Positions 27,800 through 60,223 of a DNA stretch of 64,000 nucleotides are shown one piece after another. The position numbers were made by a program, and so were the translations under genes. Location of the stretch: the NCBI GenBank assembly GCA_001509375.1, contig LGFT01000007.1, forward strand, positions 5,122 through 69,121, given 5' to 3'. Source of the stretch: Methanothrix harundinacea. Lineage in GTDB: Archaea > Halobacteriota > Methanosarcinia > Methanotrichales > Methanotrichaceae. How positions within the stretch are numbered: position 1 is the first letter of the stretch; every line of letters begins with the position of its first letter. The notes beneath the pieces were generated by a model that searched no databases, was not told the origin of the DNA, and saw only the letters and a list, made by a program, of their open reading frames with translations.

Positions 27800-27844
27800 T
27801 ATCTTTGATTATCTTTGAGTCTGACTGGACCCTCGAAAGTTTCC

Positions 27845-33915: not shown

Positions 33916-34851
33916 TTAGAGCAGCTTGTTGATGGGGTGGTTCGGGTCAAGGACGTCCAGGCCGAGCTCTTTTGCGCTCTCAGCGCACATGATGTCGACC
34001 ATGGCAGCGGCCGGGAAGACGAGGGTCGCGTTCTCGATGGGGCCATAGAGGTAATAGTCGGCACCCAGGATTCCCGCAACTAGGTTTGATCCGATATCCA
34101 CTGGAGTGAAGGCCGGTCTGTTGACCTTCCTGTACTTCTTCATCCAGTCCCAGGCAGAGGCGCCGTTGTGGTAGCCCGCGCCCACGGGAAGCCCCAAGAT
34201 CGCCTTGACTGCTATCCCTGCCCTTATGGTGGCGCCGGACCCGCTGCCAAGAGGCATGGCGGCGACGTCGATGAGGGGCCTTGTGATCCCGGCCTCTGTT
34301 GCGTAGTCGAGCATCCCCTTCTCTGCGCCCCCCGCGGCCTTCGTCAGAACGTCCATCTTGCCCTGAGTGGTGGCGTCGAGGGCGTTGAAGGCGAGGACGA
34401 TGGCGGAGTCGAGATCACTCTCCTTGACGGCCTGGAACTCCTCGGGGGTGATGCTGGCGTTGATGGAGTTGTGGATCGCCCGATCGGCAACGCCGATCTC
34501 TGTGGCGTACTTGACGCCGAAACCCCTAACGCTGGGGGCGCTGGAGTCCACCAGGAAAGGAGCGTCGGATATGTCTACGAACCAGTCCAGGTACTTGGCC
34601 ATGGCCTCGTCGGTCTCGGCGACGATCTGGTTGAAACAGGGGTTTCCGGTGGTGTCGCTCATCTCTTCCTGGTCTTTCCACAGCTTCTCCGCGGCAGCAA
34701 CGTCGAAGAGACCCTTGTCCTCGTCGGTCACTATCTTGTGCCGGGAATAGAACATCGTGCCTATGCAGACGGTGGGGTACTCGCCGGGCTGACCTCCCAC
34801 CTTGATCTTGCCGAACTCGAATACCTCTTGCTTCTTGTCAAATCTGAACAT
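33916..34851 (-). CDS. mtrH: Tetrahydromethanopterin S-methyltransferase subunit H
   Basis: A 311-aa ORF with MFRFDKKQEVFEFGKIKVGGQPGEYPTV... It is the last gene of the mtr operon order. Confidence 0.95.
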   Translation of the reverse strand: MFRFDKKQEVFEFGKIKVGGQPGEYPTVCIGTMFYSRHKIVTDEDKGLFDVAAAEKLWKDQEEMSDTTGNPCFNQIVAETDEAMAKYLDWFVDISDAPFLVDSSAPSVRGFGVKYATEIGVADRAIHNSINASITPEEFQAVKESDLDSAIVLAFNALDATTQGKMDVLTKAAGGAEKGMLDYATEAGITRPLIDVAAMPLGSGSGATIRAGIAVKAILGLPVGAGYHNGASAWDWMKKYRKVNRPAFTPVDIGSNLVAGILGADYYLYGPIENATLVFPAAAMVDIMCAESAKELGLDVLDPNHPINKLL

Positions 34852-34860
34852 GTCAAACCC

Positions 34861-35085
34861 TCACGCAACGGCCAGCAAATAGTATGCCAGCACCAATATT
34901 AATCCTCCACAGACCCCGTAGAGGATGCCGATATCTCTGCCGAGCTTCTTGCCCTGCCTCTGGGCAATCTCTGCGCTCACGAACTCTATCTTCTCATCAA
35001 TCTTTGCCAGCTTGTCCAGGACGTCCCTGTACTGCTCCTGGTCCACTACGACGCTGGGTACTACATCTCGATTATCTTGAGCCAT
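34861..35085 (-). CDS. mtrG: Tetrahydromethanopterin S-methyltransferase subunit G
   Basis: A 74-aa ORF. Helical EKIEFVSAEIAQRQGKKLGRDIGILYG is followed by a C-terminal TM, and the gene sits between mtrF and mtrH. Confidence 0.9.
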   Translation of the reverse strand: MAQDNRDVVPSVVVDQEQYRDVLDKLAKIDEKIEFVSAEIAQRQGKKLGRDIGILYGVCGGLILVLAYYLLAVA

Positions 35086-35097
35086 GATTGTATCACC

Positions 35098-35400
35098 TCA
35101 GGTCATAAAGTACACTGGCACGAGAACCATCAGAAGCGCAAAGAGGAAGCCGACTATCGCCCCGATGGGCATGGAGGCGTTTACGCCCGAGCTCAGCTTC
35201 TGATCTCTGGCCACCAGCTGCGCTTTGTACTCGATGCTATCTTTGATCTCGTCAAAGGGTCCCATGAAGGGCATCAACACGGTGGGCAGACCCTTCCCGT
35301 AAGGGATGTCGGCAGTTATAGGTTTCTCTTCAAAAACCTCTTCTGTGGCCTCTGCAGCTTCTTCTGTGACCTCTTCAGTCTTTATCTCCTCGTCTGCCAT
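35098..35400 (-). CDS. mtrF: Tetrahydromethanopterin S-methyltransferase subunit F (with acidic N-terminal extension)
   Basis: A 100-aa ORF. The C-terminal ~65 aa are MtrF-like (IEYKAQLVARDQKLSSG plus a TM), and the gene sits between mtrA and mtrG. Confidence 0.8.
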   Translation of the reverse strand: MADEEIKTEEVTEEAAEATEEVFEEKPITADIPYGKGLPTVLMPFMGPFDEIKDSIEYKAQLVARDQKLSSGVNASMPIGAIVGFLFALLMVLVPVYFMT

Positions 35401-35401
35401 C

Positions 35402-36130
35402 TCACATCCCTCCCATCTTGAGGATCAATCCGAAGAGGGCCAGAACGACGGTGAGCCCCGCCGCGATCCCTTCGATCTTTCCGGCGTATATGCCGGCGGC
35501 GTACTTGTTCTGGATTCCCACGTTGGTAACGGCGGCCTCGATCTGCCTCATCCTCGCCCGGATGTTGGCGATCTCTGCCGCCATGGGTCGCAGCCCATGG
35601 GCCTCCTCTTCAGCACCACCCTCGGAGATCTCCACGGTCATGGGCTCCACGTCGAGGGCGCCCGGATCCTTGGAGATGCACTCCTTGATCTTGGAGACGA
35701 TTGTGCCGGTATCCTCGGTGTCGATGATGTTGATCGTCTCTATCTGCTCTTTGAACCTCTCCACGGCCTCTGGGGTCAGGTTCTGGATGAAGGGGATGGC
35801 TCCTATAGCTCCGATGATCCTCCCTTCCTGATCGATCCCGCCCTTTGAGAAGGCCTCGATCGCCTGGCCCGTGATGTGGCCCTTGACCTCCATCCCGGTT
35901 ATTATCAAAAACCTGATGTTGGGGTTGGAGATTATGTTGGCCACCATCTTCTCGATGCCAATGTTCTCAGTCTTGCAGGGGCCTGCCAGGGCCGCGCCCG
36001 CATCGAGGAAAGGTGCGTTGTTCATGTGAGACCCGCAGGTCACGACGGCAACCGGGCTCTCGGCGTTTCCCATCTCGTACTCGCCGGTGATCCAGGGCCA
36101 GGGGTCAGAGGTTGGCTTTTTGTTGGCCAT
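35402..36130 (-). CDS. mtrA: Tetrahydromethanopterin S-methyltransferase subunit A (corrinoid-binding)
   Basis: A 242-aa ORF. It has WPWITGEY..., NIRFLIITGMEVKGHITGQ (His ligand region) and a C-terminal TM. Confidence 0.95.
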   Translation of the reverse strand: MANKKPTSDPWPWITGEYEMGNAESPVAVVTCGSHMNNAPFLDAGAALAGPCKTENIGIEKMVANIISNPNIRFLIITGMEVKGHITGQAIEAFSKGGIDQEGRIIGAIGAIPFIQNLTPEAVERFKEQIETINIIDTEDTGTIVSKIKECISKDPGALDVEPMTVEISEGGAEEEAHGLRPMAAEIANIRARMRQIEAAVTNVGIQNKYAAGIYAGKIEGIAAGLTVVLALFGLILKMGGM

Positions 36131-36442
36131 TCAGAACACACCTCCTTGGGAGAGTAAGTACACTAAGGCGACGACGAGGCCGATGACGAACCCGTACCAT
36201 ATGTTGGTGTAAATGCCCGCCATGTAGCTTGCACCCTCTCTGCCCTTGTAGGAGCCTAGGAGGGGCGCCCGGGGGTCAAGCGAGTTCAATAGGTCGTCGG
36301 CAGCCTTGTTTATCTCATCGATCTGGGCCGTTATCGGGTCCAGAGCGAATTGAACGACGTCCTCCCTCTCCTCTGCGATCATCCCTTCGAGGGGATCGAA
36401 GATCAGATGCAATTCGGAGGGAGTAGCTCTAACAATTCCCAT
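36131..36442 (-). CDS. mtrB: Tetrahydromethanopterin S-methyltransferase subunit B
   Basis: A 103-aa ORF with a C-terminal TM, placed between mtrC and mtrA. Confidence 0.9.
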   Translation of the reverse strand: MGIVRATPSELHLIFDPLEGMIAEEREDVVQFALDPITAQIDEINKAADDLLNSLDPRAPLLGSYKGREGASYMAGIYTNIWYGFVIGLVVALVYLLSQGGVF

Positions 36443-37255
36443 CTACAGACCTCCCTCAGGAAGAAGACCGGTCCCGACCACGCCTGAAGAGTCCCTCTTG
36501 ACGAGCGCGAAGTACCACATGAAGGACTTGATCCAGATGATCACGGCGATGACCACCGTCAGGAGTCCGGCGGCACCGATGGTGGCAAGAGACGCCAATC
36601 CCGCGGCGAACATGGCCAGAGCTCCCGTGGAGATGGTGTGGACCAGGGTCCTGTCCTGGGTCTCATCAGGTCCCAGGTTGGCGTTGAAGGGGTGCAATAT
36701 GGCCAGAGTTCCGGCGATAAAGAGGATCGCTATGTAACCCGTGTTGACGACCGACTCGAGGATCAAGGGATAGCTGATCTCTCCAGATACGGCAACGGAT
36801 AAGCCGATCAGGACGATTGCGCCCGCTCCGCCCAGGGTCATCAATACCTCCTCCATGACGGGGATGTTCATCTTGATGATCTTGTTGGCGAGTAGGCCCA
36901 CGAAGTAGCCGAACCCCATGGCGACGGCGATCCCGATGATGGGTCCCGCGACGCCTCCGATGGAGAGGCCAAACATGGCTGCGACGAGCCCCATCCCCAT
37001 CGCCATGAGGCCGATGGAAGGAACTCCCGTGCCGATGCCGTAGCTGCAGACTCTCCTCACGGCGTCAGAGCCCATCACCACAGCGGCGATGACGCCCAAT
37101 CCAGCCAAGAACGAAAAGTAGCCTGATCCGGTTATGGTGTTCAGAACGTGAGTCAGGTATATTCCCAAAACTCCGCCGCCAAGACCGTACATCATCAGCT
37201 TGGTCTTGTCGATCTTCGATTCTCCTCCGCCTGCTGCAACGCTCATATCAGGCAC
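36443..37255 (-). CDS. mtrC: Tetrahydromethanopterin S-methyltransferase subunit C
   Basis: A 270-aa polytopic, Gly-rich membrane protein at the operon position of mtrC. Confidence 0.9.
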   Translation of the reverse strand: MPDMSVAAGGGESKIDKTKLMMYGLGGGVLGIYLTHVLNTITGSGYFSFLAGLGVIAAVVMGSDAVRRVCSYGIGTGVPSIGLMAMGMGLVAAMFGLSIGGVAGPIIGIAVAMGFGYFVGLLANKIIKMNIPVMEEVLMTLGGAGAIVLIGLSVAVSGEISYPLILESVVNTGYIAILFIAGTLAILHPFNANLGPDETQDRTLVHTISTGALAMFAAGLASLATIGAAGLLTVVIAVIIWIKSFMWYFALVKRDSSGVVGTGLLPEGGL

Positions 37256-37940
37256 CTCCAGTGATCAATACAGCGAATATCCCGATGACCAGCGATGCGA
37301 CGAGACAGACCTGGACGGCTCGGGGAACTCTCTTGAACTTGGGGTCGTGGAATCCCTCGATCGTCCCCTGAATGTTGTAGGACGCGACGACGGCGTTCAC
37401 CACGAAGATACCTATGGCGAAGAAGCCCGAAAGACCAGGGTTCCCGTTGATGCTCATGAGGGCGTAGTATATCAAAGACCCTCCGGCGCCGCCGAGAAGA
37501 CCTCCGATGGTCCCGCTTACAAAGCTGACGGTGGGGATTCCGTGACCTACAGTTCCCGGTGAGATGTAGGGGGGCTGGGGTTCCTTTGTTATGGGGTCAT
37601 AGTCGACCTTGGCAGAGCACGGCGGCACGCCGACTCCGTATATGTAGACCCAGTTGCCCACGATCATGGTGGCGTCTATCATGATCATGGCGCCCACAGC
37701 ACCGCTTATCACGATCATGAGCATGTTATCTGTGACGCTCATCATCAGGCCGGCGCTCAACAGGCCGGTGAGACCTGATCCCGCCGCCAGCTGCACAGTG
37801 CCCGTTCCCACACCAGTGGCCTGGGCCATGGCGGCTGGAGCGCCACCGACAGGCACGAAGTGGACGCCGACGCCCACGAGAAGCCCGCCGATAACGATCT
37901 CTATTATGTACAGTAACATGTTTGCGTCAAATGCGATCAT
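37248..37940 (-). CDS. mtrD: Tetrahydromethanopterin S-methyltransferase subunit D
   Basis: A 230-aa polytopic ORF that overlaps mtrC by 8 nt and mtrE by 4 nt. Confidence 0.9.
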   Translation of the reverse strand: MIAFDANMLLYIIEIVIGGLLVGVGVHFVPVGGAPAAMAQATGVGTGTVQLAAGSGLTGLLSAGLMMSVTDNMLMIVISGAVGAMIMIDATMIVGNWVYIYGVGVPPCSAKVDYDPITKEPQPPYISPGTVGHGIPTVSFVSGTIGGLLGGAGGSLIYYALMSINGNPGLSGFFAIGIFVVNAVVASYNIQGTIEGFHDPKFKRVPRAVQVCLVASLVIGIFAVLITGGA

Positions 37941-38845
37941 GCCTCAATATCCCCCGCATATTCGGGATAGGGCCCGTACCTCTTTTTCGACCTGATCTCC
38001 AGTATCCTGTTGTAGATGTTGAACAGGATGACTATCACGACACCAGTGACGATCGCAAGCCAACCCTGGGTGGCCGGATCGAAGATGGTGGTCCGCCAGT
38101 TGTCCAAGAAGACGGTCAGCCCAAAGGCCATTCCAGTGACGGGACCTCCGAACCGAGCGCAGAACCAGGCGTTGTCGATGGAGCTTCGCAGGCCTGCCTC
38201 AGCCTTGGTGACGATGTCTCCGGAGTTGGCGGCGTTCAGCCCGGACCCGAAGGGATAGGCCTGAAACTCCCTCTCTGCACCGTAGTGAACGTCCCCGGTT
38301 GACGACCCTATGGCGCCGATGGCGAGACCCCAGATGAAAGCCACAAGAGGCATCGGGAAGGGGTGCTGAATCGGAAGCCAAGGTGCTGTCATGATGTAGG
38401 AGATGGTGACGACACAGAAGGCAGTGATGTACGCATGTGCCATTATTGTTGTAGTGTGAGTGCGCAGAACGTCCAGGTAGACGTACTGGTTGAACCTCGC
38501 CTGGCTCGTGTTCCTGCCCATGTAGGCAGTAACTGAAAATATGCCGTTGAATATCGCAGCGGCGACCGCTCCGATGGCGATGGCGAAGAACGCGTTCATA
38601 CCGTACCCGGACATTAAGACACTAGCTGTAACTGCGGCAAGGGCGGCGTAAAGAGCGTTCGATGGTGGCTCTCCAGAAATGGCTTTGTTGTAAATTCTGT
38701 GGGGGTGTCCCACCTGAGCAGCCAACTGGACCTGTGAGTTTGGATTGCTCTGAGAACCCACATCGGACTCTAAGTCCTCACTTGCACCGGCTACTGTCGC
38801 AAGGGCACCCATAGCAGCTAGGAGCCCCATGCTAACCATGTCCAT
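37937..38845 (-). CDS. mtrE: Tetrahydromethanopterin S-methyltransferase subunit E
   Basis: A 302-aa polytopic ORF and the first gene of the mtrEDCBAFGH order. Confidence 0.9.
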   Translation of the reverse strand: MDMVSMGLLAAMGALATVAGASEDLESDVGSQSNPNSQVQLAAQVGHPHRIYNKAISGEPPSNALYAALAAVTASVLMSGYGMNAFFAIAIGAVAAAIFNGIFSVTAYMGRNTSQARFNQYVYLDVLRTHTTTIMAHAYITAFCVVTISYIMTAPWLPIQHPFPMPLVAFIWGLAIGAIGSSTGDVHYGAEREFQAYPFGSGLNAANSGDIVTKAEAGLRSSIDNAWFCARFGGPVTGMAFGLTVFLDNWRTTIFDPATQGWLAIVTGVVIVILFNIYNRILEIRSKKRYGPYPEYAGDIEA

Positions 38846-40890: not shown

Positions 40891-41928
40891 TTGCCCGCGG
40901 GAATAGTGAGCTATGGAGTCTACATACCCAAGTACAGGATACGGGCCAAGGAGATAGCTCGGGTCTGGGGCGAGAGGGAGGACATGGCCCAAAACCTGAA
41001 CGTCTTCGAGAAATCCGTCCCGGACATCGACGAGGACGCGGTGACCATCGCCGTTGAGGCTGCGCGAAACGCCGTCAGGCGAGCTTCCATCGATCCGGCC
41101 AGGATCGGGGCTATCTATGCCGGGTCCGAGAGCCACCCTTACGCAGTAAAGCCGACGGGAACTATCGTCGGCGAAGCCATAGGTGTCGATCATCAGCTCA
41201 CGGTGGCGGACTTAGAGTTCGCCTGCAAAGCAGGAACGGCAGCGGTCCAGGCCTGCCTCGGCCTTGTGACAGCGAACCTCATCGACCTGGGCCTCGCCGT
41301 CGGAACTGACACCAGCCAGGGCGCCCCCGGTGACGCCCTCGAGTACACAGCGGCCGCTGGAGCCGCAGCCTACATCATCGGCCGTGAGAACATTGCGGCC
41401 GAGATAGAGGGGTTCTACTCCTTCACCACCGATACCCCCGACTTTTGGAGACGGGAAGGGATGCCCTACCCAGAGCACGGGGGGAGGTTCACCGGCGAGC
41501 CTGGCTACTTCAAGCACGTGATGAGCGCCACCCGAGGGCTATTGAAGAAGATGGGGACCATCCCAGAGGATTACGATTATGCCGTATTCCACCAGCCCAA
41601 CGGGAAGTTCCCCGTTCGTGTGGCAGGCCAGCTCGGATTTTTGAGAGAACAGATCGAACCGGGCCTCGTCGTCCCCTGGATCGGAAACACCTACTCGGGT
41701 TCGAGCCTCATAGGCCTCGCCGCAACCCTGGACGTCGCCCGGCCGGGGGAGAGGATATTTCTTGCGAGCTTCGGATCAGGGGCGGGAAGCGACGCCTTCA
41801 GCATAAGGGTGAAAGACGAGATAGAGGACGTCCGGAATCGCGCCCCGAAGGTCAGGAACTACTTCGAGAACGTCCAGTACCTCGATTACGCGGTTTACGC
41901 CAAGCACAAAGGGAAGCTACGGCTGTGA
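40891..41928 (+). CDS. Archaeal hydroxymethylglutaryl-CoA synthase
   Basis: A 345-aa ORF. It has [14 protein letters not shown]..., the catalytic Cys region LEFACKAGT, and ...HQPNGKF... Confidence 0.85.
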
Positions 41929-41932
41929 GATT

Positions 41933-43096
41933 ATGAGATCTGTATCGATTATCGGAGCGGGGTGCACCCGGTTCGGAGAGCGGTGGTACGACTCCCTCCG
42001 GGACCTGGTGGTGGAGACCGGCATCATGGCCCTAGAGGACGCCAGCGTCAGCGGCGATGAGATAGACGGCCTCTACATCGGAAACATGAGCGGAGGCAGG
42101 TTCGTGGAGCAGGAGCACATCGGCGCCCTCATCTCCGACTGCGCCGGCCTCTCGAGGCTTCATGTCCCCAGCACCCGGGTAGAGGCGGCCTGCGCCTCGG
42201 GGGGACTCGCCCTGAGGCAGGCGGTCCTGGCGGTGGCGAGCGGCTACTCCGACGTCGTCATCGCCGCCGGGGTCGAGAAGATGACCGACGTCACCGGCGG
42301 CGTCGCCGCCGACGCCCTGGCCGCCGCCGCCGACCGGGAGTGGGAGTGCTTCTTCGGGGCGACCTTTCCGGCCCTCTACGCCATGATCGCCAGGCTTCAC
42401 ATGCACCGCTTCGGAACGACGAGGGAAGAGCTCGCCGCGGTGGCCGTAAAGAACCATCACAACGGGTGCGCAAACCCCATCTCCCAGTACCAGATGGAAA
42501 TCTCCGTCGAGAAGGTCCTCCGGTCCCCCCTAGTCGCCGATCCCCTTCGAGTCCTGGACTGCTCTCCGATCACCGATGGCGCCGCCGCCGTAGTCTTGGC
42601 CCCGACGGAAGTGGCTTCCAAGTACTCCGACGCGCCGATAAAGATTTTAGCGGCGGCCCAGGCGAGCGACACCCTCGCCCTCCACGACCGGAGGGAGATC
42701 ACCACCCTGGACGCATCGGTCTATGCCGCCAGGAAGGCCTTCGATCAGGCGGGCCTCGCGCCGAAAGACATCGACCTCGCCGAGGTTCACGACGCCTTCA
42801 CCATAGGGGAGATCGTTGCCATCGAGGATCTGGGGTTCGTCGAGAAGGGCGAGGGAGGCAGGGCCGCCGAGGAGGGGCTGACCGCCATCGGGGGGAAGAT
42901 CCCCATCAACACCTCCGGAGGCCTCAAGGCCTGTGGTCATCCCGTTGGCGCCACCGGGATCAAGCAGGCCTACGAGATGGTCCTCCAGCTCAGGGGCGAG
43001 GCCGGGAAGCGGCAGGTTGATGGGGCGAAGGTCGGCCTCACCCACAACGTCGGAGGCTGCGGCGGCACCGCCCTCGTCCACATCATGTCGAGGTGA
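41933..43096 (+). CDS. Acetyl-CoA C-acetyltransferase (thiolase)
   Basis: A 387-aa ORF. It has the active-site [16 protein letters not shown], and the C-terminal GGCGGTA motif ([16 protein letters not shown]). Confidence 0.9.
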
Positions 43097-51422: not shown

Positions 51423-52019
51423 TCAGTCGAAAAATGTGCTGTCTGCCGTCCCCGATAGGCTCTGGCCGTCAGAGCCGATGGCCAGGTAGCTTCCCCGGAT
51501 CGATCCCCCTTCGATCTCCAGGTCCAGAACGTAGAGGCGGGATCCGTCCAATGGCACCAGTTTGAGAAACAGCGCGTCGCCAGCAACCGACCCGCTGGCA
51601 CCAACCGCGCTCTTGCCGCCCCTCGCGGTCAGGCTTCCCGCCCCGAAGACGACATCTCCGGATCGGAAAAGGTTGAGGTCGACGTTCCCGGTGACGTCGC
51701 CGAAGAGGGTCAGGTCCACCTGGTCCAGCGCGCCCAATTTGGCCGTCTCCTCTTCCGCGACGCTGGGATCGCCTACGCCGTCTTCACCGGCCTCGTTCAG
51801 CGAATCATCGATCGGAAAATCGTCATCTTCGGCCTCCGCCGTATTCAGGCCCGTCGCACCGTCGTTCGACTTCGGCACGTCGAGATTAAAACCGAGGTCG
51901 CCGGCGCCGAGCCACTCGACGTTATCGACGTAACTTAGCCGAGGGCAAAGCCCATCAGCCGCCCCCAAGATGATAGAGGCCGTCACTACAGAAAGCAACA
52001 ACATACTCAGGTATCTCAT
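51423..52019 (-). CDS. Secreted protein, paralog 1 of an unrecognised 4-member family
   Basis: This is ORF 51423..52232 trimmed to the ATG at 52019, which gives a signal peptide (MRYLSMLLLSVVTASIILGAADG). The shared core is VDLTLF...VVFGAG...YVLDLEI...GSYLAIGSDG. Confidence 0.6.
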   Translation of the reverse strand: MRYLSMLLLSVVTASIILGAADGLCPRLSYVDNVEWLGAGDLGFNLDVPKSNDGATGLNTAEAEDDDFPIDDSLNEAGEDGVGDPSVAEEETAKLGALDQVDLTLFGDVTGNVDLNLFRSGDVVFGAGSLTARGGKSAVGASGSVAGDALFLKLVPLDGSRLYVLDLEIEGGSIRGSYLAIGSDGQSLSGTADSTFFD

Positions 52020-52113
52020 ATATCTCGAAACTCCTCTTGTTCGGGAAATCCAACATTTATAAGAACGTTTTATTCTCACGACTTCAACAAATATTTTTTG
52101 GGTTGTCCTGAGT

Positions 52114-52728
52114 TTAGACAGCTCCAAGCCCCGAACCAAAACCGCTTGCGATGTCCGGAGGGAGCGCCTCCTGGGTCTGAACAGGACCGAGGAACTCCCC
52201 CGAGGAAGCGGTTTTGTATCCGGTGGCGGCACCGGATCCTGTGAGGCCTGACGCCGAATAGGCTGCGTAGCTTCCCTGGATTGGGCTCGTCAAAAGGCTG
52301 AGCCTCAGCCTGATGAGGGCCGGAACGCCGAAGGTGACAACCCGCAAGTCCAACATGTTTGAGGTCGCATACCCCGCCGCTGTGACGGAGTTGCTCCCCC
52401 TCGCCGAATTGATTCTCCCCTCCCCGAAGACCTCGCCTTCGACCTGATAAAGGGCCAGGTCCATCCTTCTCGTCTCGTCGCCTGCCAAGGTGATGGACCA
52501 GATACCGGCGACATCAGCTGAAATTTGGCCGGAAAGGTCGGGCTCGATCCATCCGGTTCCATTCTCCGATAGGTTCATCATGCCGGCGATGTAGCCCTCA
52601 GTATGATGGACGTCGACGATCCGAAGACCTCCGATTCCGAGCCACTCATCTTCAGTCGATCCGTCCGCCTGCGCCGGATACGATGTCGCCAGAAGGAGCG
52701 CAGCGATCAAAACCAGAACGATTTTCAT
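52114..52728 (-). CDS. Secreted protein, paralog 2
   Basis: A 204-aa ORF with a signal peptide (MKIVLVLIAALLLATSYPAQA). The core is GIWSITL...MDLALYQVEGEVFGEG...IRLRLSL...GSYAAYSASG. Confidence 0.65.
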   Translation of the reverse strand: MKIVLVLIAALLLATSYPAQADGSTEDEWLGIGGLRIVDVHHTEGYIAGMMNLSENGTGWIEPDLSGQISADVAGIWSITLAGDETRRMDLALYQVEGEVFGEGRINSARGSNSVTAAGYATSNMLDLRVVTFGVPALIRLRLSLLTSPIQGSYAAYSASGLTGSGAATGYKTASSGEFLGPVQTQEALPPDIASGFGSGLGAV

Positions 52729-52786: not shown

Positions 52787-53416
52787 TCAGCTCATGGCGT
52801 TTCCGCCAGATACCCCCATCCCGACACTTACAGTACTCGTAGGCACCGCTGATGCGCTCTGGGTGGTGGCATAGAAGCGGTTTCCATTGCAGTTTCCAGC
52901 CCAGGAGATCCCATCAGAGGAGTAGGCGCTGTAGGTGCCGAAGATGCTGTTTCCGCTGACAGAGGCCTTGAGCCTGTACATGCTGTTTCCGCCGACGGTG
53001 ACCAGACGAAGGGACAGGGCGGATCCTTCAATGAACCCCGCGGCAGTTACCTCCTGGGAGTTGACCCCAGTGGCCATGACTCCCCTTCCGAAGACCTCGT
53101 TTCCGTACTGGTAGAGGGTGAGGTCAACGGTCCTGGAGGCGGAGTCGATGAGACTCAGAGTCCATCTTCCTTCGACGTTCGACCACGGTGTCACCGTCCC
53201 GGAAGCTGGCGTCGAAACGCGGCTTCCGTTATCGGCGCCGGGGCTCATTCCATGGGTCGGGTCGATGTAGAAGAGGGATTCCCCCTTGAAGGCCTCTCCC
53301 ACATCCTCTTTGATACCGCTTCCGGAGAGATCGCTGAGGTAATCTTGAGATGCTGCGGGGAAGGCAAAAGCTGCCAATAAGACCAGCGGCAAAGTCAAAG
53401 CCTTTTGAAATTTCAT
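52787..53416 (-). CDS. Secreted protein, paralog 3
   Basis: A 209-aa ORF with a signal peptide. The core is GRWTLSL...VDLTLYQYGNEVFGRG...YRLKASV...GTYSAYSSDG. Confidence 0.65.
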   Translation of the reverse strand: MKFQKALTLPLVLLAAFAFPAASQDYLSDLSGSGIKEDVGEAFKGESLFYIDPTHGMSPGADNGSRVSTPASGTVTPWSNVEGRWTLSLIDSASRTVDLTLYQYGNEVFGRGVMATGVNSQEVTAAGFIEGSALSLRLVTVGGNSMYRLKASVSGNSIFGTYSAYSSDGISWAGNCNGNRFYATTQSASAVPTSTVSVGMGVSGGNAMS

Positions 53417-53507
53417 TTTATCGCAAACCTCCTTAATCTTCCAAATGAGGATAAATCTGCCGGACCCTTCCGCCCGGCTTTACGATGCTCTTGTACCCCA
53501 CCATCCT

Positions 53508-54200
53508 TCAGCTCTTGCGGGACCCAGTGACGGTTCCATTCCAGGTCGATCCGTCGCTCCCGTAAGCCGAATAGCTCCCTTGGGCGAGATCTCCCGTCAG
53601 GGAGAGATCGAGCCTGTAAAGTGTGATGGTGTCCATGGATACGAGGTCGAGCTTCATCTCATCGCCTGTGACGGTGCCGCTGGCGGCTGCCTGGCTGGCG
53701 GAGCCGAGGGCCGAAGCCGGCTGGTTCAACCAGTCGATCATCGACTCGATTCCTCGATCCTCCGAGGATGCTGAAGCCGTTCCGGTGCCGTCAGACGGGC
53801 CTATAACTCCCTTGCCGAAGATCAGGTCACCCTTCTGGTAGAGGGCCAGGTCCAGGGATCTCATGGTGCTCTCAGCCATCGCAAAGGACCATCTTCCCGA
53901 GAAGTCCGACGGCTCTGTCGTCTCCATATCGGGAGGCTCCGCGGCCGCGCCCGTTCCGCCTATGCTGTAGACCTCCCGGTTGTCGGTCTCATTTGGGATG
54001 GTGGCGATGCCGCCTTCGGTCTTTTCGACGGTCGCATCGTTTTCGCTGGCGCTTCCGACTTTTGAAATATACTCGGAGGTATGGTGCACGTCCGCTATGG
54101 CCATGCTGCCACCGAGCCAGTCGCCATCAGCGGCCTGGGCTACGAAGACAAAAGATGTGAGGACCGCTAGACATAATAGAGCTGACTTAAAGTTGGTCAT
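53508..54200 (-). CDS. Secreted protein, paralog 4
   Basis: A 230-aa ORF with a signal peptide. The core is GRWSFAM...LDLALYQKGDLIFGKG...YRLDLSL...GSYSAYGSDG. Confidence 0.65.
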   Translation of the reverse strand: MTNFKSALLCLAVLTSFVFVAQAADGDWLGGSMAIADVHHTSEYISKVGSASENDATVEKTEGGIATIPNETDNREVYSIGGTGAAAEPPDMETTEPSDFSGRWSFAMAESTMRSLDLALYQKGDLIFGKGVIGPSDGTGTASASSEDRGIESMIDWLNQPASALGSASQAAASGTVTGDEMKLDLVSMDTITLYRLDLSLTGDLAQGSYSAYGSDGSTWNGTVTGSRKS

Positions 54201-54280
54201 TGGATTTTAACCCCCGTTTTGGAAGATGGAGTTTTGGGTATAAAATCGTTTTGTTCTTTTGAAGTAGGGAACCATTTATG

Positions 54281-55444
54281 CTATTCTTCCATCTCGAATA
54301 TGGATGAGTGAGCCTGCCTGAACTTTTCGTCCTTCATCATGCACCCGGCTGGCTTCCCCTTCATCCACCGGTCTCGCCCCATATCTCTCCAGATTTCCTT
54401 GAGGCTTTTCTCCCGGACGTTCCCAAAGGATATCGGCATGTAGGCGCAGGGGAGAACATCGCCCGAGGCTTCGATGTGGAGCCACCTTCTCCCAGCAAAG
54501 CATCCGAACATCTCGGGGCCCAGGAGACGGGGAAAGGCACTTACCCGAGGCCCCTCAGGCAAGCGATTCTTCTCTTCGTGGAATCGACTCAGCCGATCTA
54601 TGTCGCCTTTGCTCAAGACCTCGTCTAGGTGGGTGGACCACCTCCCCACGGCCACGATCTCGTAGAGGGAGAGCTCGTGGACCGAGAGCTCTGCCGCCAA
54701 GTTGTAAGCGTCCTCCAGGTCGTCTATGTTCATGGGGGACGCTACCATGAAGAGGTCTGTCATCAGCCCCCCCGCCAGGGCGTTTTTTATCCCCGAGAGG
54801 GCATCGCTGAAGGCCCCCTCTCTTCCTCGGAAGCGATCGTGCTCTTTTGGGTGAGGGCTGTCGATGCTCACCCTCACAGCATAGAGACCGGCCCGCTTCA
54901 AGGACTGGACCAGCTCCTCGGTAAGGCCGTAGCCGCTGGTGAAGGAGGTGGAGACGGCCCTACCGTCGACTTGAGCCACGAGGTCGGGAAGGTCGCGCCT
55001 GGTCATCGGCTCCCCGCCGTCGAAGGATATGAGGTAAGATCCGAGGTCGAGGCCCTCATCGATCACCCTTTTGATGTCCTCGGAGCTGAGGATCTCCCCC
55101 TTTCGCGACGGTGCGCTGCAGTGGAGGCAGTTGTTGGGACAGGCGCGGATTATGGCGATGGATACCTGGTCAGGGATCCTTCTCCTAGTCAGGGCGGCCA
55201 CCTGAGCTGAGATCATCCGGTCGAAGGCGGGGCTCGGCGCGGGGGGGATCCAGGTGGAGAAGATTATCTGGTCTGGGCCCGACCGGATCGGTTTCTCGCT
55301 CGCAAAGATCTCATTGATCTTTCTTATGGCGGGACCTGCGACCCTAGAGAGGGGGCCGGTCGCCCGGAAGTAAATCTTGCCTCCTTCTGTCTCGGCCTCT
55401 ATCTTCAGCAGCGGTTTTTCAGCGACTTGCATTCTTCTCCCCAC
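54281..55444 (-). CDS. Radical SAM enzyme with SPASM/twitch-type C-terminal domain and ~100-aa N-terminal extension
   Basis: A 387-aa ORF. The CxxxCxxC motif is CPNNCLHC. The auxiliary-cluster signature is CFAGRRWLHIEASGDVLPC (C-x12-G-x4-C), followed by only one more Cys. Confidence 0.8.
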   Translation of the reverse strand: MGRRMQVAEKPLLKIEAETEGGKIYFRATGPLSRVAGPAIRKINEIFASEKPIRSGPDQIIFSTWIPPAPSPAFDRMISAQVAALTRRRIPDQVSIAIIRACPNNCLHCSAPSRKGEILSSEDIKRVIDEGLDLGSYLISFDGGEPMTRRDLPDLVAQVDGRAVSTSFTSGYGLTEELVQSLKRAGLYAVRVSIDSPHPKEHDRFRGREGAFSDALSGIKNALAGGLMTDLFMVASPMNIDDLEDAYNLAAELSVHELSLYEIVAVGRWSTHLDEVLSKGDIDRLSRFHEEKNRLPEGPRVSAFPRLLGPEMFGCFAGRRWLHIEASGDVLPCAYMPISFGNVREKSLKEIWRDMGRDRWMKGKPAGCMMKDEKFRQAHSSIFEMEE

Positions 55445-56262
55445 TTGTCTACGATGCTTCCAAGCCTAGCCTTGATATCTTCATCGCCGCCAGCCTCGGC
55501 GAGAGCCCTCTTTGCGGCACGGCAGTGGTCTCGGATCACCTCGGCACAGAGGCCCAGAGTCGCCTCCATCGAGTGGTCCCGGCTGTAAATGACGGGAAGG
55601 GTCGCGGAAGTCTTCTCCGATGATTTTCCCTTCTCCACCCCCAAAAATTCGTTCAGGTCGTCGGCGACCTGATATGCGAGGCCCAGGTGCATCCCATACC
55701 TCTCGAAGAGGGCGACGTCCTCGTCATCGGCCCCGGCTATCAGGCACCCGATCTTGGAGGAAGCGGATATGAGGGAAGCCGTCTTCTTGCAGATGCAGAG
55801 GTAGTAGTCCTCAGGCCCCTTCCCATTGGCAAGGTCCAGCATCTCCCCTTCGGACATCTCCATGCAGGCCTGGGAAAAGGCCTCGACCACCTTCTGGCTG
55901 TAGCCTGACATGAGGCCGATGGACCTGGATATCAGGTAGTCTCCACAGAGGAGGGCCGCCTCCAGCCCGTATCTGTTAAAAGCGCTGGCTGCGCCCCGCC
56001 GCTCCGTTCCGCAGTCGAGGATGTCGTCGTGGACGAGGGAAGCAGCGTGGACCAGCTCCAAGGCCAGAGCCGCGTCCATCGATTTGGCCGGATCGCAGCC
56101 GAAGGCCTCCGACGAGAGGATGAGGATGAGGGGTCGGACCCTCTTTCCCGGAGAGGCGAGGACGTACTTTATCACCTCCCCCAGGCCCGGGGCCGGCAGC
56201 CTCTCCGTCAGCCTAATAAGCTCCCCGTTGATCAGATGATACTCATCCCAGGCCTCGAACAT
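55405..56262 (-). CDS. Short polyprenyl (trans-isoprenyl) diphosphate synthase-family protein with variant second Asp-rich motif
   Basis: A 285-aa ORF. The first Asp-rich motif is LVHDDILDCGTERRG (DDxxD-x4-RRG). The second reads YQVADDLNE (DDxxE). The 3' end overlaps the radical SAM gene by 40 nt. Confidence 0.75.
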   Translation of the reverse strand: MFEAWDEYHLINGELIRLTERLPAPGLGEVIKYVLASPGKRVRPLILILSSEAFGCDPAKSMDAALALELVHAASLVHDDILDCGTERRGAASAFNRYGLEAALLCGDYLISRSIGLMSGYSQKVVEAFSQACMEMSEGEMLDLANGKGPEDYYLCICKKTASLISASSKIGCLIAGADDEDVALFERYGMHLGLAYQVADDLNEFLGVEKGKSSEKTSATLPVIYSRDHSMEATLGLCAEVIRDHCRAAKRALAEAGGDEDIKARLGSIVDKWGEECKSLKNRC

Positions 56263-56530
56263 CTCGGTGTTGGTTGGCCGGATCTATATTTAGTTGTTGC
56301 GAAACGGAACCGGTGGGTGCGTCTTTTCGAAAAGAGAGTCCTCGAAAGGGTTCGATGGATCTATCCGGATTTACCGTAACATTTAGGATCACATCTCACC
56401 AAACTCCAAAGAAGGTAACGGGTCCAAGGCAGACAATTCTTATCGGCAATAAATTTGAAGTGCCAGCATTTTCGAATACACAAAAGATATTATACTTTAT
56501 CTGTTTAAGTTATACCGAGGAGAAAGGGAG

Positions 56531-58063
56531 ATGAAGGCGATTTATGTTCTATCCTCGGCTCTGCTCCTCGTCTTTGGACTGCTGGGGTCGGCCTCCTCGG
56601 CCCGGACCCTGGCCAGCACCTTCGACGAGGGCAACGAGGGATGGGGTTTGGTGGGGGAAGCTGCCCCATCCTGGCAGCGGTTTGGAGGAGATCAGGGGGG
56701 ATTTTTCCAGGTGGAGGGCACCGGTGCCGAAGCTTGGAGCTTTGAATCGCCAAAGTCTTGGTCGGGAGACTGGAGCCGGTACGTCGGAGGGATATTGAGT
56801 TTCGACGAGAGGCTGATGGCGGCTGACGGGCTGAATCCCGGCGAGGAGACCGTGAAGATTGTGACCTCTGACGGCGCAGTTCTCTCCTGGCGGAGCCCAG
56901 AACCGGAAAGGTTTTGGACCCATCGCGAGGTCGTCCTCAACCCCTCCAACTTCGGAACTTTGGAGGCTGAATTTCGTCGGGCCATGAGATCGGTGGCGAA
57001 GATCTCCATCGAGGGGAATGGGTCGGGGAGAAGGTACCTCATCGGCCTAGACAACATCGTCGTCGCGCCCCCCTCGGGCCTTGACCTCACCGCCGATTTC
57101 GACGATGGGGACGGTGGATGGAGGCCCGATGGCGACGTCTCATTTGAATGGAGAAAGACCGGCGGAAACGGCGGCGGGTTTCTTTTGGGCAGAGATCTCG
57201 GCGACGGAAGCACCTGGTACTTCGCCTCGCCGCGGTCCTGGTCGGGGGACTGGACCCCTTACATCGGAGGGGTTTTGAGCTTCGACCTGAAGATGATAGA
57301 TTCCGGGATGGGCAAGCCTTACGAGGCGGAGAAGGTTAAGATCGTCGGGTCGGATGGATCGGTCGTCTCCATCTACCCTTCATCCTCGTCGTATTCGCCG
57401 GCGGGCTCATGGACCAGATGCCAGGTGGCCCTCACCCCCGCCGTCTTCGGCGCGAGAGAGGAGACGTTTTTGAGGGTCATGAGGTCTGTGGACCGGGTCA
57501 TGATCAGGGGAGAGTACTCGGACCGGAGCGACGTCGAGGGGATCGACAACGTGATGGTCATCCTCCCCATCGTTACTGAACTGATCAGCTGTTTCGATCA
57601 CGGAGACGAGGACTGGAGGGGGGGTCGGGACGTCAATCTCTCCTGGAGAGAGGTGGGAGGAGATCCTGGCGGCTTCCTTCTGGGCGAGGATCGGGGGTCT
57701 GGACAGACCTGGTACTACGTCTCGCCTCTCTCTTGGGCCGGGAACTGGACCCCCTACATCGGCGGGACGCTGAGCTTCGAGCTGAAGGTTGTGGATTCGG
57801 GGAACGGCAGCTCCATATTCGGGGACGTGGTCCGGATATGCGGCCGGGACGGCTCTTACCTATCTTGGTCTTGCGACCCGCCCGGAGCGGCGTGGACCCG
57901 CCGTCAGGTCACCCTCGCCCCATCTTCCTTCAAGGAGGTGGGCGGGAGCTTCGATTCCATAATGAAAGACGTCTCAGAGGTCTGGATCCGGGGGGAGTAC
58001 AGCAACATGAGGGACGTGGGGGGCATCGACAACGTGATGGTCACCCTGGGACCCGGGGGGTAG
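56531..58063 (+). CDS. Secreted protein with three laminin-B (laminin domain IV)-like repeats
   Basis: A 510-aa ORF with a signal peptide and three ~160-aa repeats. Each repeat carries FD.G.EGW..., W[YS][FY].SP.SW.G[DN]W..Y[IV]GG.LSF[DE]..., and ...V..[VI].IRGEYS...D..GIDNV.V. Confidence 0.6.
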   Translation: MKAIYVLSSALLLVFGLLGSASSARTLASTFDEGNEGWGLVGEAAPSWQRFGGDQGGFFQVEGTGAEAWSFESPKSWSGDWSRYVGGILSFDERLMAADGLNPGEETVKIVTSDGAVLSWRSPEPERFWTHREVVLNPSNFGTLEAEFRRAMRSVAKISIEGNGSGRRYLIGLDNIVVAPPSGLDLTADFDDGDGGWRPDGDVSFEWRKTGGNGGGFLLGRDLGDGSTWYFASPRSWSGDWTPYIGGVLSFDLKMIDSGMGKPYEAEKVKIVGSDGSVVSIYPSSSSYSPAGSWTRCQVALTPAVFGAREETFLRVMRSVDRVMIRGEYSDRSDVEGIDNVMVILPIVTELISCFDHGDEDWRGGRDVNLSWREVGGDPGGFLLGEDRGSGQTWYYVSPLSWAGNWTPYIGGTLSFELKVVDSGNGSSIFGDVVRICGRDGSYLSWSCDPPGAAWTRRQVTLAPSSFKEVGGSFDSIMKDVSEVWIRGEYSNMRDVGGIDNVMVTLGPGG

Positions 58064-58180
58064 GCTCCAGGGGGGGAACCTCACCCCCTTCGATCTTCCG
58101 GGATTTTCTCTTCAGGCCGCCACCCCGCCCTCGGCCCTGCTCCGCAAAGTTTTTGGCAGATCCCAGAGAAACATATCAAT

Positions 58181-60223
58181 ATGAAGAGCATTTTCCGGCG
58201 ATCAGCCCCGGGGCTGATCTACGCAACTTTTGTTTTTTTGATGATGGCGACGGCGGGGTACTCTCAGATGGATCCCAACGAGCCGAACAGCGAGCTTGGA
58301 AACGCCACCCGGATCAGCTTAGGCGGTTCCGTGGCGGGGACTATAGAACCGGCGGGGGACGTGGACTTCTTCGGCTTTGAGATCGCAAGCCCAGGGATCC
58401 TGGAGGTGAAATTGAATTCGGTTCCCGATGAGATGAGGGCAAGGATCGACCTCTATGGCAAGAACTTCAACTTCATCACGAGGAGAGACGCCTCAAACCC
58501 CGGAGACCTGGTGACCCTCACCCTCGATCTGGCGAGCCCGGCCCTGTACTACATCGGGATCGTAGACCTGGCGAGGAAGTCCCACGATGCCGGGTACACC
58601 TTCGATCTCGGCTTTGATCCCCTCGTAGACGTAAACGAGCCGAACGGCGAGGCTGGGGACGCGAAGCCCATCGAGATTGGCAATCTCGTAGAGGGATACA
58701 TCTTCCCGAAGGGGGACTTGGACATATACAAGCTCTATGCAAACGGCTCCGGGATCCTGGAGGTGAAGGCCGAGTCAGTACCGGAGAATATGAGGACAAG
58801 GATCGACCTCTACGGCAAAAACTTCAACTTCATCACCAGGGTCGACGCATCGAACCCCGGAGACCTAGTGACTCTGAAGCACGACGTGGTCAATCATGGA
58901 TGGTATCCGGAATGGTACTACATCGGGATCGTAGACCTCTCGGGAGGCTCCTACAACGTCCCATACGCCTTCAAAGCGGACTTTGAGCCGGTGATCGACG
59001 AGAACGAGCCGAACGGCGAGATCGGGAACGCTGTGGGCATCGACCTCGGCGATCAAATAGAGGGATACATCTTTTCCAAGGGGGACGTAGACTTCTTCAA
59101 GATCGAGGCGCCGAGCCCTGGAATTTTGGAGGTGAAGACGGTATCCGTCCCTGATGAGATGAGGACGAGGATCGACCTCTACGGCAAGAGCTTCAATTTC
59201 ATCACCAGGAAAGACGCCTCAAACCCCGGAGACAAGACGACCCTGAGTTTTGACGTAAAGAACCCGGGGGTATATCACATCGGGATCGTCGACCTGGCGG
59301 GCAACTCCCTTAATGTGCCTTACACATTTGAGACCTCCTTCGAGGGGGTTACAGATGGAAACGAGCCGAACAGCGAGATAGGGGACGCCGCCCCCATCAG
59401 CCCCGGCGAGGCTGTCGGAGGGGTCATCTTCCCGGCGGGGGTGGTGGACTTCTACAAGATATGGGCGGACGGCCCCGGGGACCTGGAGGTGAAGCTCGAA
59501 TCTCTCCCCGAAGATATGAGGGCTAGGATCGACCTCTACGGCAAGAACTTCAACTTCATCACGAGAGCCGACGCCACAAACCCCGGAGACCTGGCGACCC
59601 TCAAATATGAGGCTCCAGGTCCCGGCTGGTATTACATCGGAGTCAGCGACCTGGCGGGCAAGTCCCACAGCATCGGCTACACCTTCCGGGCCGTCGGCGA
59701 GGGGCTTGGGGCGAGCGGTTCCGGTCCGACAGAGGACGGTGTCGACGGGACGAAGGCGGGAGAGGTAAAAGACGTTCCTGATGGTACAGCCGGAGGGACG
59801 ATGGCGTCGTATCAAGAGGCTACCATCACCCATTCGGGATTTGATTTCTCCGAGGGCGCCACCGGCGAATACCCCACCTTTGATGGGGAGATAATAGAGT
59901 GGCAGCCCAGCGCCGAGGATCACCCCGATTATCCTCGGGATAGCGGGTACCTCTGGTGGAGGAACACTCATCTGGACAATGTGAACTTCTCGAGCCAGAC
60001 CAAGGATATGGGCGCGGTCGATATCGCTACAGTGCGAAATGTTCCTGCAGAATGGGACAGATCACCCCTGATACCACCACTTCTGTTGGGGCATACGGTC
60101 GTCGCCAAGTGCCATGACGGATACGTCAAGTTCCATGTGATATCGGTGGACTCTAACAACTGGTCTGCTGTGGTCAGGTATTCCTACTCCCCTGATGCCG
60201 TCTTCGACGACCTCGCAAGCTGA
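58181..60223 (+). CDS. Secreted protein with four PPC (pre-peptidase C-terminal)-like repeats plus an unrecognised ~170-aa C-terminal domain
   Basis: A 680-aa ORF with a signal peptide. Four ~120-aa repeats carry NEPN.E.G.A..I..G..v.G.I...GDVDF[FY]K..., G.LEVK, RIDLYGKNFNFITR.DASNPGD and YYIGIVDL. Confidence 0.65.
   Translation: MKSIFRRSAPGLIYATFVFLMMATAGYSQMDPNEPNSELGNATRISLGGSVAGTIEPAGDVDFFGFEIASPGILEVKLNSVPDEMRARIDLYGKNFNFITRRDASNPGDLVTLTLDLASPALYYIGIVDLARKSHDAGYTFDLGFDPLVDVNEPNGEAGDAKPIEIGNLVEGYIFPKGDLDIYKLYANGSGILEVKAESVPENMRTRIDLYGKNFNFITRVDASNPGDLVTLKHDVVNHGWYPEWYYIGIVDLSGGSYNVPYAFKADFEPVIDENEPNGEIGNAVGIDLGDQIEGYIFSKGDVDFFKIEAPSPGILEVKTVSVPDEMRTRIDLYGKSFNFITRKDASNPGDKTTLSFDVKNPGVYHIGIVDLAGNSLNVPYTFETSFEGVTDGNEPNSEIGDAAPISPGEAVGGVIFPAGVVDFYKIWADGPGDLEVKLESLPEDMRARIDLYGKNFNFITRADATNPGDLATLKYEAPGPGWYYIGVSDLAGKSHSIGYTFRAVGEGLGASGSGPTEDGVDGTKAGEVKDVPDGTAGGTMASYQEATITHSGFDFSEGATGEYPTFDGEIIEWQPSAEDHPDYPRDSGYLWWRNTHLDNVNFSSQTKDMGAVDIATVRNVPAEWDRSPLIPPLLLGHTVVAKCHDGYVKFHVISVDSNNWSAVVRYSYSPDAVFDDLAS
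58271..59700 (+). repeat. In-frame coding tandem repeat (4 units, 357-369 nt period)
   Basis: The near-identical core AGGATCGACCTCTA[TC]GGCAA[GA]A[AG]CTTCAA[CT]TTCATCAC starts at 58442, 58799, 59168 and 59525. Confidence 0.9.

Follow-up and report, generated by a model that had tools for sequence, protein, structure and literature searches.

An overlapping gene pair of Methanothrix harundinacea links a geranylfarnesyl-diphosphate-synthase-like enzyme with an uncharacterised radical-SAM family and is a candidate for methanophenazine biosynthesis

Introduction

Why would the gene of a polyprenyl synthase run into that of a radical S-adenosylmethionine (radical-SAM) enzyme, and do the two proteins serve one pathway? 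The question is raised by a stretch of 64,000 nucleotides from Methanothrix harundinacea (GenBank assembly GCA_001509375.1, contig LGFT01000007.1, positions 5,122 to 69,121 of the forward strand; the whole stretch is called the window here), in which a trans-prenyl diphosphate synthase gene (55405..56262, minus strand; 285 residues) overlaps the start of a gene for a radical-SAM enzyme with a twitch-type auxiliary domain (54281..55432, minus strand; 383 residues from ATG 55432). An original prediction, made from the sequence letters, had proposed that the pair tailors isoprenoids. Our analysis led us to a more specific proposal, to which we give even chances: the two genes form an operon in which a methanophenazine-tail synthase is joined by a radical-SAM enzyme of the same pathway, catalyzing a radical step in the making of methanophenazine. 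Synthases of this kind are known, and the novelty lies in the radical-SAM family and in its pairing.

Methanophenazine is the membrane electron carrier of Methanosarcinales, the order that includes acetate-using methanogens, which account for much of the biogenic methane made worldwide, and the methane oxidizers of the anaerobic methanotrophic archaea group 2 (ANME-2). Methanosaeta (Methanothrix) has been cited as passing electrons to methanophenazine (PMC7886697). The geranylfarnesyl diphosphate (GFPP) synthase of Methanosarcina mazei (MM_0789) has been assigned to the C25 tail of the carrier, and its close homologues are confined to Methanosarcinales (PMC3017947; PMC8546582). The pathway beyond this synthase was called unidentified in papers from 2018 and 2021, and the literature that we searched contained no later paper solving it. 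The same search, which included neighboring locus tags and transposon sequencing data, returned no link between a radical-SAM enzyme and either methanophenazine or GFPP synthase.

Results

The synthase passed the gathering threshold of Pfam PF00348 (polyprenyl_synt; 163.6 bits versus 27), and the top of its 16 NCBIfam matches was NF040627 (GFPS_Meth; 233.4 bits), with the runner-up at 145 bits. Its closest chain in the PDB was 3IPI (E 2.6e-63), which we take to be the M. mazei protein. The predicted DDILD-x4-RRG motif was present as DDILD-CGTE-RRG within the string ASLVH-DDILD-CGTE-RRG, which spans the first aspartate-rich motif (FARM) and the small residues Ala(-5) and Ser(-4) ahead of it. 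The second aspartate-rich motif reads VADDLNE, with Glu and not Asp as the third acidic residue. This DDLNE motif and the short length of 285 residues had been taken as signs of a variant enzyme; both features are real, and both turned out to be ordinary for the family. The GFPS_Meth model itself has 285 positions, versus 326-328 for the models of geranylgeranyl diphosphate (GGPP) synthase, and DDLEE (79) and DDLNE (15) were the commonest second motifs in 122 synthase homologues, with DDILE in Methanosarcina. Ala/Ser at -5/-4 of the FARM and a DDxxE second motif are common to the whole synthase family, and DDxxE thus appears to be a subfamily trait and no defect.

The synthase of Methanosarcina thermophila, encoded upstream of the radical-SAM orthologue, scored 615 bits and cleared the GFPS_Meth cut-off of 600, while the Methanococcoides and Methanomethylovorans synthases in the same position stayed below it (357-363 bits). 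The window synthase shares 42% identity with that of M. thermophila. Judged by these comparisons, it appears to be the Methanotrichaceae counterpart of the Methanosarcina GFPP synthase, neither a variant nor a housekeeping GGPP synthase, and its product would be a C25 chain.

The length of the overlap depends on where the radical-SAM protein starts. The mechanical open reading frame (ORF) spans 54281..55444 (minus strand) and encodes 387 residues when begun at GTG 55444, whereas gene callers start at ATG 55432 (MQVAEK...), the equivalent of the Met at which homologues of 377-397 residues begin. A GGGGAG Shine-Dalgarno-like site (55437..55442, minus strand), placed 4 nt upstream of this ATG within the synthase coding sequence, would presumably serve the same start. 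The overlap, predicted to be 40 nt, is therefore real but 28 nt long and out of frame (55405..55432, minus strand; synthase stop TGA 55407-55405, radical-SAM start ATG 55432-55430), and it may be the site of translational coupling.

To place the pair among its relatives, loci were collected by a scan of species-level genomes (best 80 loci), a metagenome scan (80 more loci), and protein look-ups for distant contexts. The genome-scan loci were all from Methanotrichaceae except two metagenome-assembled genomes (MAGs) labeled 'Methanosarcinaceae' and 'Methanosarcinales'. The exact 28-nt overlap recurred in 118 of 119 assessable Methanotrichaceae-type loci, and the two loci of this type that had no synthase both lie on truncated contigs. 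Some loci of this type came from the same or near-identical genomes, and most were distinct. Because the same 28 nt are kept in these loci across radical-SAM identities of 52-92%, the arrangement is far beyond chance, in agreement with the predicted conserved, translationally coupled unit. A relative from a 'Methanocellales' MAG (53% identity) overlaps a GFPP-synthase-like gene by 34 nt. In eight Methanosarcinaceae loci, from Methanococcoides methylutens, Methanomethylovorans hollandica, M. thermophila, and several MAGs, the radical-SAM orthologue lies downstream of the synthase with a gap of 12-131 nt and is 55-56% identical to the window enzyme. Between Methanothrix and Methanosarcina, the radical-SAM enzyme is thus the better conserved partner (55% identity versus 42% for the synthase).

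A neighbor-joining (NJ) tree united the synthase-linked radical-SAM proteins of Methanotrichaceae, Methanosarcinaceae, and the 'Methanocellales' MAG in one clade, and across these three groups the pairing is kept while all flanking genes differ. Methanococcoides, Methanomethylovorans, and one MAG have the pair placed between a heme cluster (hemABCL, ahbAB, AhbD, CcmE) and an A-type ATP synthase operon, with a genuine AhbD (623-641 bits) three genes from the radical-SAM orthologue. The Methanosarcinaceae surroundings of the pair are a gene neighborhood of respiratory-chain cofactors, and the closeness of the synthase to these neighbors had been noted earlier (PMC3017947).

The radical-SAM clade extends beyond the pair. 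In 32 loci, the radical-SAM protein best matched the Methanosarcinaceae type at 51-70% identity and no synthase gene was near; exact look-ups of nine such unlinked proteins led to ANME-2a/b, ANME-2c (Methanogaster), and Methermicoccus shengliensis. The ANME-2a/b-type loci (L113:5583-7173; L102, L103, L106-L108, L110, L112, L115-L117, L119, L121-L124) display the Methanosarcinaceae gene order minus the synthase. CofH lies about 1.5 kb upstream of the radical-SAM orthologue in the ANME-2c loci, and CofG and purB lie upstream of it in the Methermicoccus locus. The clade spans the whole order, but only Methanotrichaceae, Methanosarcinaceae, and one further MAG link it to the synthase. In the loci collected here, the clade appears to track the order thought to use methanophenazine.

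The radical-SAM enzyme was clearly recognized by Pfam (Radical_SAM PF04055, 74.5 bits versus a threshold of 29.5), with a partial SPASM match of 44 bits. Its CxxxCxxC motif, CPNNCLHC (residues 98-105 in ATG numbering; 55118..55141, minus strand), predicted to bind a [4Fe-4S] cluster, and its FDGGEP motif are invariant in our alignment of relatives (A1). The N-terminal domain (residues 1-90; 55163..55432, minus strand), delimited by alignments A1 and A5 and structure models, consists in the models of three beta strands and two helices, and it carries a signature common to the family, GPLS...EKP...STWIPPxPSxAF (family-wide STWxPPxPSxAF). The C-terminal domain (residues 301-383; 54284..54532, minus strand) is of twitch type, with FGC311-x12-G324-x4-C329 and C364, and G310, C311, A313, G324, C329, and C364 are invariant in A1. 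The original prediction had described this architecture well: CPNNCLHC, the C-x12-G-x4-C signature, and the reduced cysteine count are all present, C311, C329, and C364 being the only C-terminal cysteines and thus the three auxiliary ones, and the extension put at about 100 residues corresponds to 97 residues ahead of the first cluster cysteine. The seven-cysteine pattern of a full SPASM domain (CX9-15GX4C...CX2CX5CX3C...C) was not found, and the Pfam match covered profile positions 1-46 of 67. Because the CX2CX5CX3C block is missing, the auxiliary domain fits the shorter twitch type, as far as cysteine spacing can tell. An AlphaFold (AF2) model of the enzyme built on an 18-sequence alignment was of high quality (predicted local distance difference test [pLDDT], 89.3; predicted template modeling score, 0.91).

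No curated family could be assigned to this enzyme, all 49 of its NCBIfam matches being far under the respective cut-offs: AhbD TIGR04545 (132.9 bits versus 500), AhbC TIGR04546 (98.9 versus 650), NirJ (71.7 versus 515), NirJ2 (119 versus 500), PqqE TIGR02109 (105.3 versus 381), and MoaA TIGR02668 (80.6 versus 325) and TIGR02666 (61.2 versus 284). Six relatives and the Methanosarcinaceae orthologues likewise matched no curated NCBIfam family, and the earlier failure to recognize any characterized enzyme in the sequence is thereby borne out. Sequence matches in the PDB were weak (BlsE, E 2.6e-13; SkfB, PqqE, MoaA, and GDGT-MAS), and a Foldseek search with the AlphaFold model gave generic SPASM/twitch matches (SkfB, SuiB, PqqE, BlsE, DesII, MoaA, and viperin) with template modeling (TM) scores of 0.52-0.61. 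The suggested likeness to tetraether- or ring-forming lipid enzymes did not hold, since the match to GDGT-MAS/Tes (7TOL) was confined to query residues 95-207 (113 residues; E 3.4e-4, 23 bits) and its fold match was poor (TM 0.48/0.38; root mean square deviation, 12.5). The isolated N-terminal domain model (pLDDT 76.8) had no PDB fold match better than E 0.7. A role of this domain in peptide recognition (RRE/PqqD-like) was accordingly dropped, although remote fold kinship is possible. No conserved small ORF or precursor gene was found beside the radical-SAM orthologues in the neighborhoods inspected. By these profile and fold comparisons, the enzyme appears to belong to an uncharacterized family inside the well-known twitch/SPASM class.

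Relatives outside the clade were informative about the company that this family keeps. A second Methanosarcinaceae protein (P0135 type), 37% identical to the window enzyme, lies among the genes for L10e, eIF2-beta, Trp/Tyr-tRNA synthetase, and Phe-tRNA synthetase alpha, in the order L10e, eIF2-beta, radical-SAM, Trp/Tyr-tRNA synthetase, Phe-tRNA synthetase alpha (L084:8001-9212; L085:8001-9212; L086:8001-9218). Such proteins had been candidates for orthologues that break the linkage, and the NJ tree and a second search showed them to be a paralogue.

In a sister clade (41% identity), six loci whose members are 68-97% identical place the radical-SAM gene between two UbiA genes. In four of the six, a ThiC/BzaF-family gene precedes this trio with reading frames that overlap or nearly touch, which gives a four-gene operon (L092:5691-10239; L095:1077-5474; L096:46-3656; L097:289-4684); the ThiC/BzaF-family protein matched the models of both ThiC (582-596 bits) and BzaB (545-569 bits). 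Because enzymes of the ThiC/BzaF family convert aminoimidazole ribotide to N-heteroaromatics, this operon looks like a putative pathway to an unknown prenylated heteroaromatic compound. Another relative (43% identity), on a single short contig, directly follows the gene of a 396-residue flavin adenine dinucleotide (FAD)-binding protein of geranylgeranyl-reductase type (L093:83-2526; FAD_binding_3, with a faint Lycopene_cycl match). Methanonatronarchaeum sp. AMET-Sl carries a tandem of two family paralogues with a third radical-SAM gene, a shorter one, behind them (L174:6793-10231) and no prenyl enzyme within 8 kb; further family members also have no prenyl neighbor. Since independent links to three kinds of prenyl-metabolism enzymes were observed, the neighborhoods argue that this part of the family may act on prenylated compounds.

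Upstream of the pair, an A+T-rich TATA-like element, CTAAATATAG (56284..56293, minus strand), lies about 26 nt before the synthase ATG and is possibly the archaeal promoter of a bicistronic transcript with a short leader or none. An Rfam scan of 53400-56700 detected no RNA element. Divergent from the synthase gene, two large secreted repeat proteins are encoded at 56531-60223 (plus strand), one (510 residues) combining a Laminin_B-like domain with a threefold internal repeat, the other (680 residues) bearing a repeated PPC (pre-peptidase C-terminal) domain. On the other side, the radical-SAM gene is followed by genes for four signal-peptide paralogues of about 200-230 residues (53508-54200, 52787-53416, 52114-52728, and 51423-52232, minus strand), which are 29-37% identical to one another, show a common 'DL.LYQ...FG.G' motif, and match nothing in Pfam. 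The harundinacea-like clade keeps them, other Methanothrix have weaker copies, and a TATA-like element ahead of the first gene suggests that this gene has a promoter of its own. As substrates or partners of the radical-SAM enzyme they were rejected, being found in Methanotrichaceae only, and the ORF in the matching place of the 'Methanocellales' locus is unrelated.

The closest homologues come from Methanothrix, Methanocrinis, and other Methanotrichaceae. The gene content of the window, which includes the mtr operon (33916-38845, minus strand; MtrE, D, C, A, and H were recognized), HMG-CoA synthase with thiolase, gyrase, and SAICAR synthase, agrees with a methanogen that uses acetate. HMG-CoA synthase and thiolase (40891-43096, plus strand), the entry to the mevalonate pathway, are encoded about 12 kb from the synthase gene. 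Another radical-SAM gene of the window (298 residues, no SPASM domain) adjoins a gene for a Mrp/NUBPL-type iron-sulfur P-loop ATPase (26888-28741, minus strand).

Discussion

Our proposal that the pair serves methanophenazine biosynthesis is drawn from several lines of evidence: an overlap whose length is conserved exactly, a pairing that persists amid changing flanks, the conservation of the radical-SAM enzyme above that of the synthase (55% versus 42%), the apparent limitation of the clade to the methanophenazine order, the respiratory-cofactor neighborhood in Methanosarcinaceae, and the prenyl links of the sister clades. In the mechanism that we infer, from product chain length and coupling to pathway and reaction, the synthase would supply the C25 polyprenyl tail of methanophenazine. 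The radical-SAM enzyme would be translated as a coupled unit with it, which is likely because its gene begins 28 nt before the synthase stop codon. At the CxxxCxxC cluster, S-adenosylmethionine would be reductively cleaved to a 5'-deoxyadenosyl radical, which would abstract hydrogen (C-H activation) on the head group, on its C25 linkage, or on a prenylated intermediate. The three-cysteine twitch domain may hold one auxiliary Fe-S cluster, perhaps with an open or non-cysteine coordination site, which would bind the substrate or shuttle electrons.

Several observations weigh against this proposal. The window synthase, at 233 bits, is below the 600-bit equivalog cut-off of GFPS_Meth, and its C25 product is a predicted one. 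None of the 24 ANME-2 and Methermicoccus loci with at least 1 kb of upstream flank has a synthase in flanks of up to about 6 kb, so the linkage is lineage-specific. CcmE stands directly upstream of the radical-SAM orthologue in 16 ANME-2a/b-type loci, where heme handling is equally indicated. A paralogue resides among translation genes, and family membership alone thus implies no isoprenoid role. Finally, no sequence feature ties the radical-SAM enzyme to a particular substrate.

The original prediction can be read in this light. The linkage that it expected in relatives is kept in Methanotrichaceae and Methanosarcinaceae and is not universal, as ANME-2 and Methermicoccus show. It had named two outcomes that would speak against it, loss of the neighborhood in related genomes and an unrelated known function of the radical-SAM enzyme together with a housekeeping synthase, and what we found in their place was a pair conserved as neighbors, a radical-SAM enzyme outside every heme or cofactor family by curated cut-off, and a synthase that is not the housekeeping GGPP synthase. 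Of the alternatives that it offered, a membrane lipid or a quinone/phenazine-like side chain, the phenazine-like option fits best through the GFPP-synthase counterpart, and the lipid option lost the support of any specific lipid-enzyme likeness. As the chemistry, isoprenoid tailoring is suggested by the gene neighborhood only.

A related but less probable scenario, to which we attach a small chance, is that the radical-SAM family, possibly together with the second Methanosarcinaceae paralogue, uses radical chemistry to build or mature the N-heteroaromatic head group of the carrier methanophenazine, which would amount to a phenazine route independent of bacterial Phz. It is hinted at by the sister-clade operon, in which a ThiC/BzaF-family enzyme accompanies two UbiA prenyltransferases. 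If this holds, the wider family would be a marker of archaeal pathways to membrane cofactors of the prenylated N-heteroaromatic type. The chance is comparably small that the pair modifies a membrane lipid, in which case a glycerol ether lipid would receive a C25 (or other) chain from the synthase, and isoprenoid tails would be cross-linked, cyclized, or altered in another way by the radical-SAM enzyme. Tes, GrsA/B, and Cds are precedents for radical-SAM enzymes acting on archaeal isoprenoid lipids (PMC9385802), and relatives of the window enzyme adjoin UbiA prenyltransferases and a reductase-like flavoprotein. Nevertheless, the similarity to GDGT-MAS/Tes is generic, the synthase groups with a Methanosarcina enzyme assigned to methanophenazine and not to lipids, and the Methanosarcinaceae neighbors are respiratory genes rather than lipid genes. 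We also know of no C25 ether lipids as a trait of Methanosarcinales.

The gene order ahbAB-AhbD-CcmE-synthase-radical-SAM in Methanosarcinaceae lends itself to yet another explanation, in which the radical-SAM enzyme serves heme or cytochrome biogenesis (a CcmE-linked or siroheme-dependent step) and its adjacency to the synthase is inherited gene order in a neighborhood of respiratory cofactors. The immediate succession of CcmE and the radical-SAM gene, with no synthase between, in the 16 ANME-2a/b-type loci agrees with this, as do the top, though weak, NCBIfam matches (AhbD and NirJ2). We nonetheless consider it rather unlikely, given the low scores for AhbD (133 bits, cut-off 500) and AhbC (99 bits, cut-off 650), and given that the same Methanosarcinaceae loci already hold a genuine AhbD nearby (623-641 bits). 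That AhbD reaches 219-240 bits on the AhbC model, whereas the orthologues of the window enzyme gave no match at E<=1e-40, and the full SPASM cysteine set of AhbC, AhbD, and NirJ is absent from the window enzyme. CcmE or a heme gene is adjacent in 0 of about 120 Methanotrichaceae loci, all assessable ones of which keep the synthase overlap, and Methanothrix is generally reported to have no c-type cytochromes.

We place little credence in the simpler view that the two genes are functionally unrelated and that their overlap reflects compact genome packing kept by descent within one family. Short overlaps of unrelated neighbors do occur in prokaryotes, and the missing linkage in ANME-2 and Methermicoccus would be expected under it, but the pairing is found in two families, despite orthologue identities of only 42-55%, and in a further MAG, it persists though every flanking gene differs, and relatives from other clades have independent links of their own to different prenyl enzymes. 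The least probable of the explanations considered is a peptide or protein maturase of SkfB/SuiB/PqqE type, with an N-terminal domain that recognizes a peptide and no functional tie to the synthase. SkfB, SuiB, and PqqE are indeed the top whole-protein fold matches (E 1e-16 to 1e-14), maturases of this kind typically place an N-terminal domain of about 90 residues before the core, and four small secreted paralogues follow the radical-SAM gene in the window. However, the TM scores are only 0.54-0.61, with small-molecule enzymes (BlsE, DesII, MoaA, and viperin) scoring alike, and a fold search with the N-terminal domain alone gave nothing significant, known peptide-recognition domains included (best E 0.7). 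Moreover, no precursor-like gene is conserved beside the orthologues, and the secreted paralogues, at 200-230 residues, are restricted to Methanotrichaceae and absent from the Methanosarcinaceae, ANME-2, and 'Methanocellales' loci.

For the methanophenazine pathway, a well-conserved radical-SAM gene tightly joined to that of the synthase is a concrete, testable candidate. The question can be put to experiment because the orthologue adjoins the synthase in Methanosarcina, a genus with genetically tractable species. If our proposal is true, a new radical-SAM reaction would be defined, the gene would be a genomic marker for methanophenazine use that is better than the synthase alone, and the wider prenyltransferase-linked family in other archaea would gain a functional lead.

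Among known systems, the AhbD/NirJ-type families (TIGR04545, TIGR04055, TIGR04546) are the best-scoring curated ones and resemble the window enzyme in the radical-SAM core and in the opening part of the SPASM motif. The window enzyme reaches only a fifth to a quarter of their cut-offs and has no CX2CX5CX3C cysteines, and its STWxPPxPS N-terminal domain of about 90 residues lies outside the AhbD model, to which the match begins at query residue 97 (model position 5). Several database records label the orthologues 'PqqE' or 'PqqA peptide cyclase', and PqqE gives a fold match of E 6.6e-14, but the window locus holds no PqqA-like or other precursor gene nearby. A similar domain plan is seen in MoaA, SkfB, BlsE, and DesII, which like the window enzyme have one abbreviated auxiliary-cluster domain after the core (fold matches, E 1e-16 to 1e-12). 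Three auxiliary cysteines are a MoaA-like trait; in MoaA, the fourth iron of the auxiliary cluster binds the substrate, and BtrN is another twitch-domain enzyme. These enzymes differ from that of the window in identity (16-20%), N-terminal domain, and genomic context, and on the MoaA NCBIfam models the window enzyme scores 61-81 bits versus cut-offs of 231-325. Tes/GDGT-MAS, GrsA/B, and Cds, the radical-SAM enzymes of archaeal isoprenoid chains with which the original prediction drew its analogy (PMC9385802), are represented in our comparison by 7TOL, and Tes/GDGT-MAS differs from the window enzyme in size and cluster complement.

For the synthase, the closest known system is that of Methanosarcina. 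MM_0789, NF040627, and 3IPI share with the window synthase the Pfam family, the length of 285 residues, the ASL[VI]H-DD[IL]LD-x4-RRG string, and the DDxxE motif, and the Methanosarcina GFPP synthase gene likewise stands directly upstream of the orthologous radical-SAM gene. The Methanosarcinaceae synthase genes adjoin their radical-SAM partners without overlap, whereas the two genes of the window overlap.

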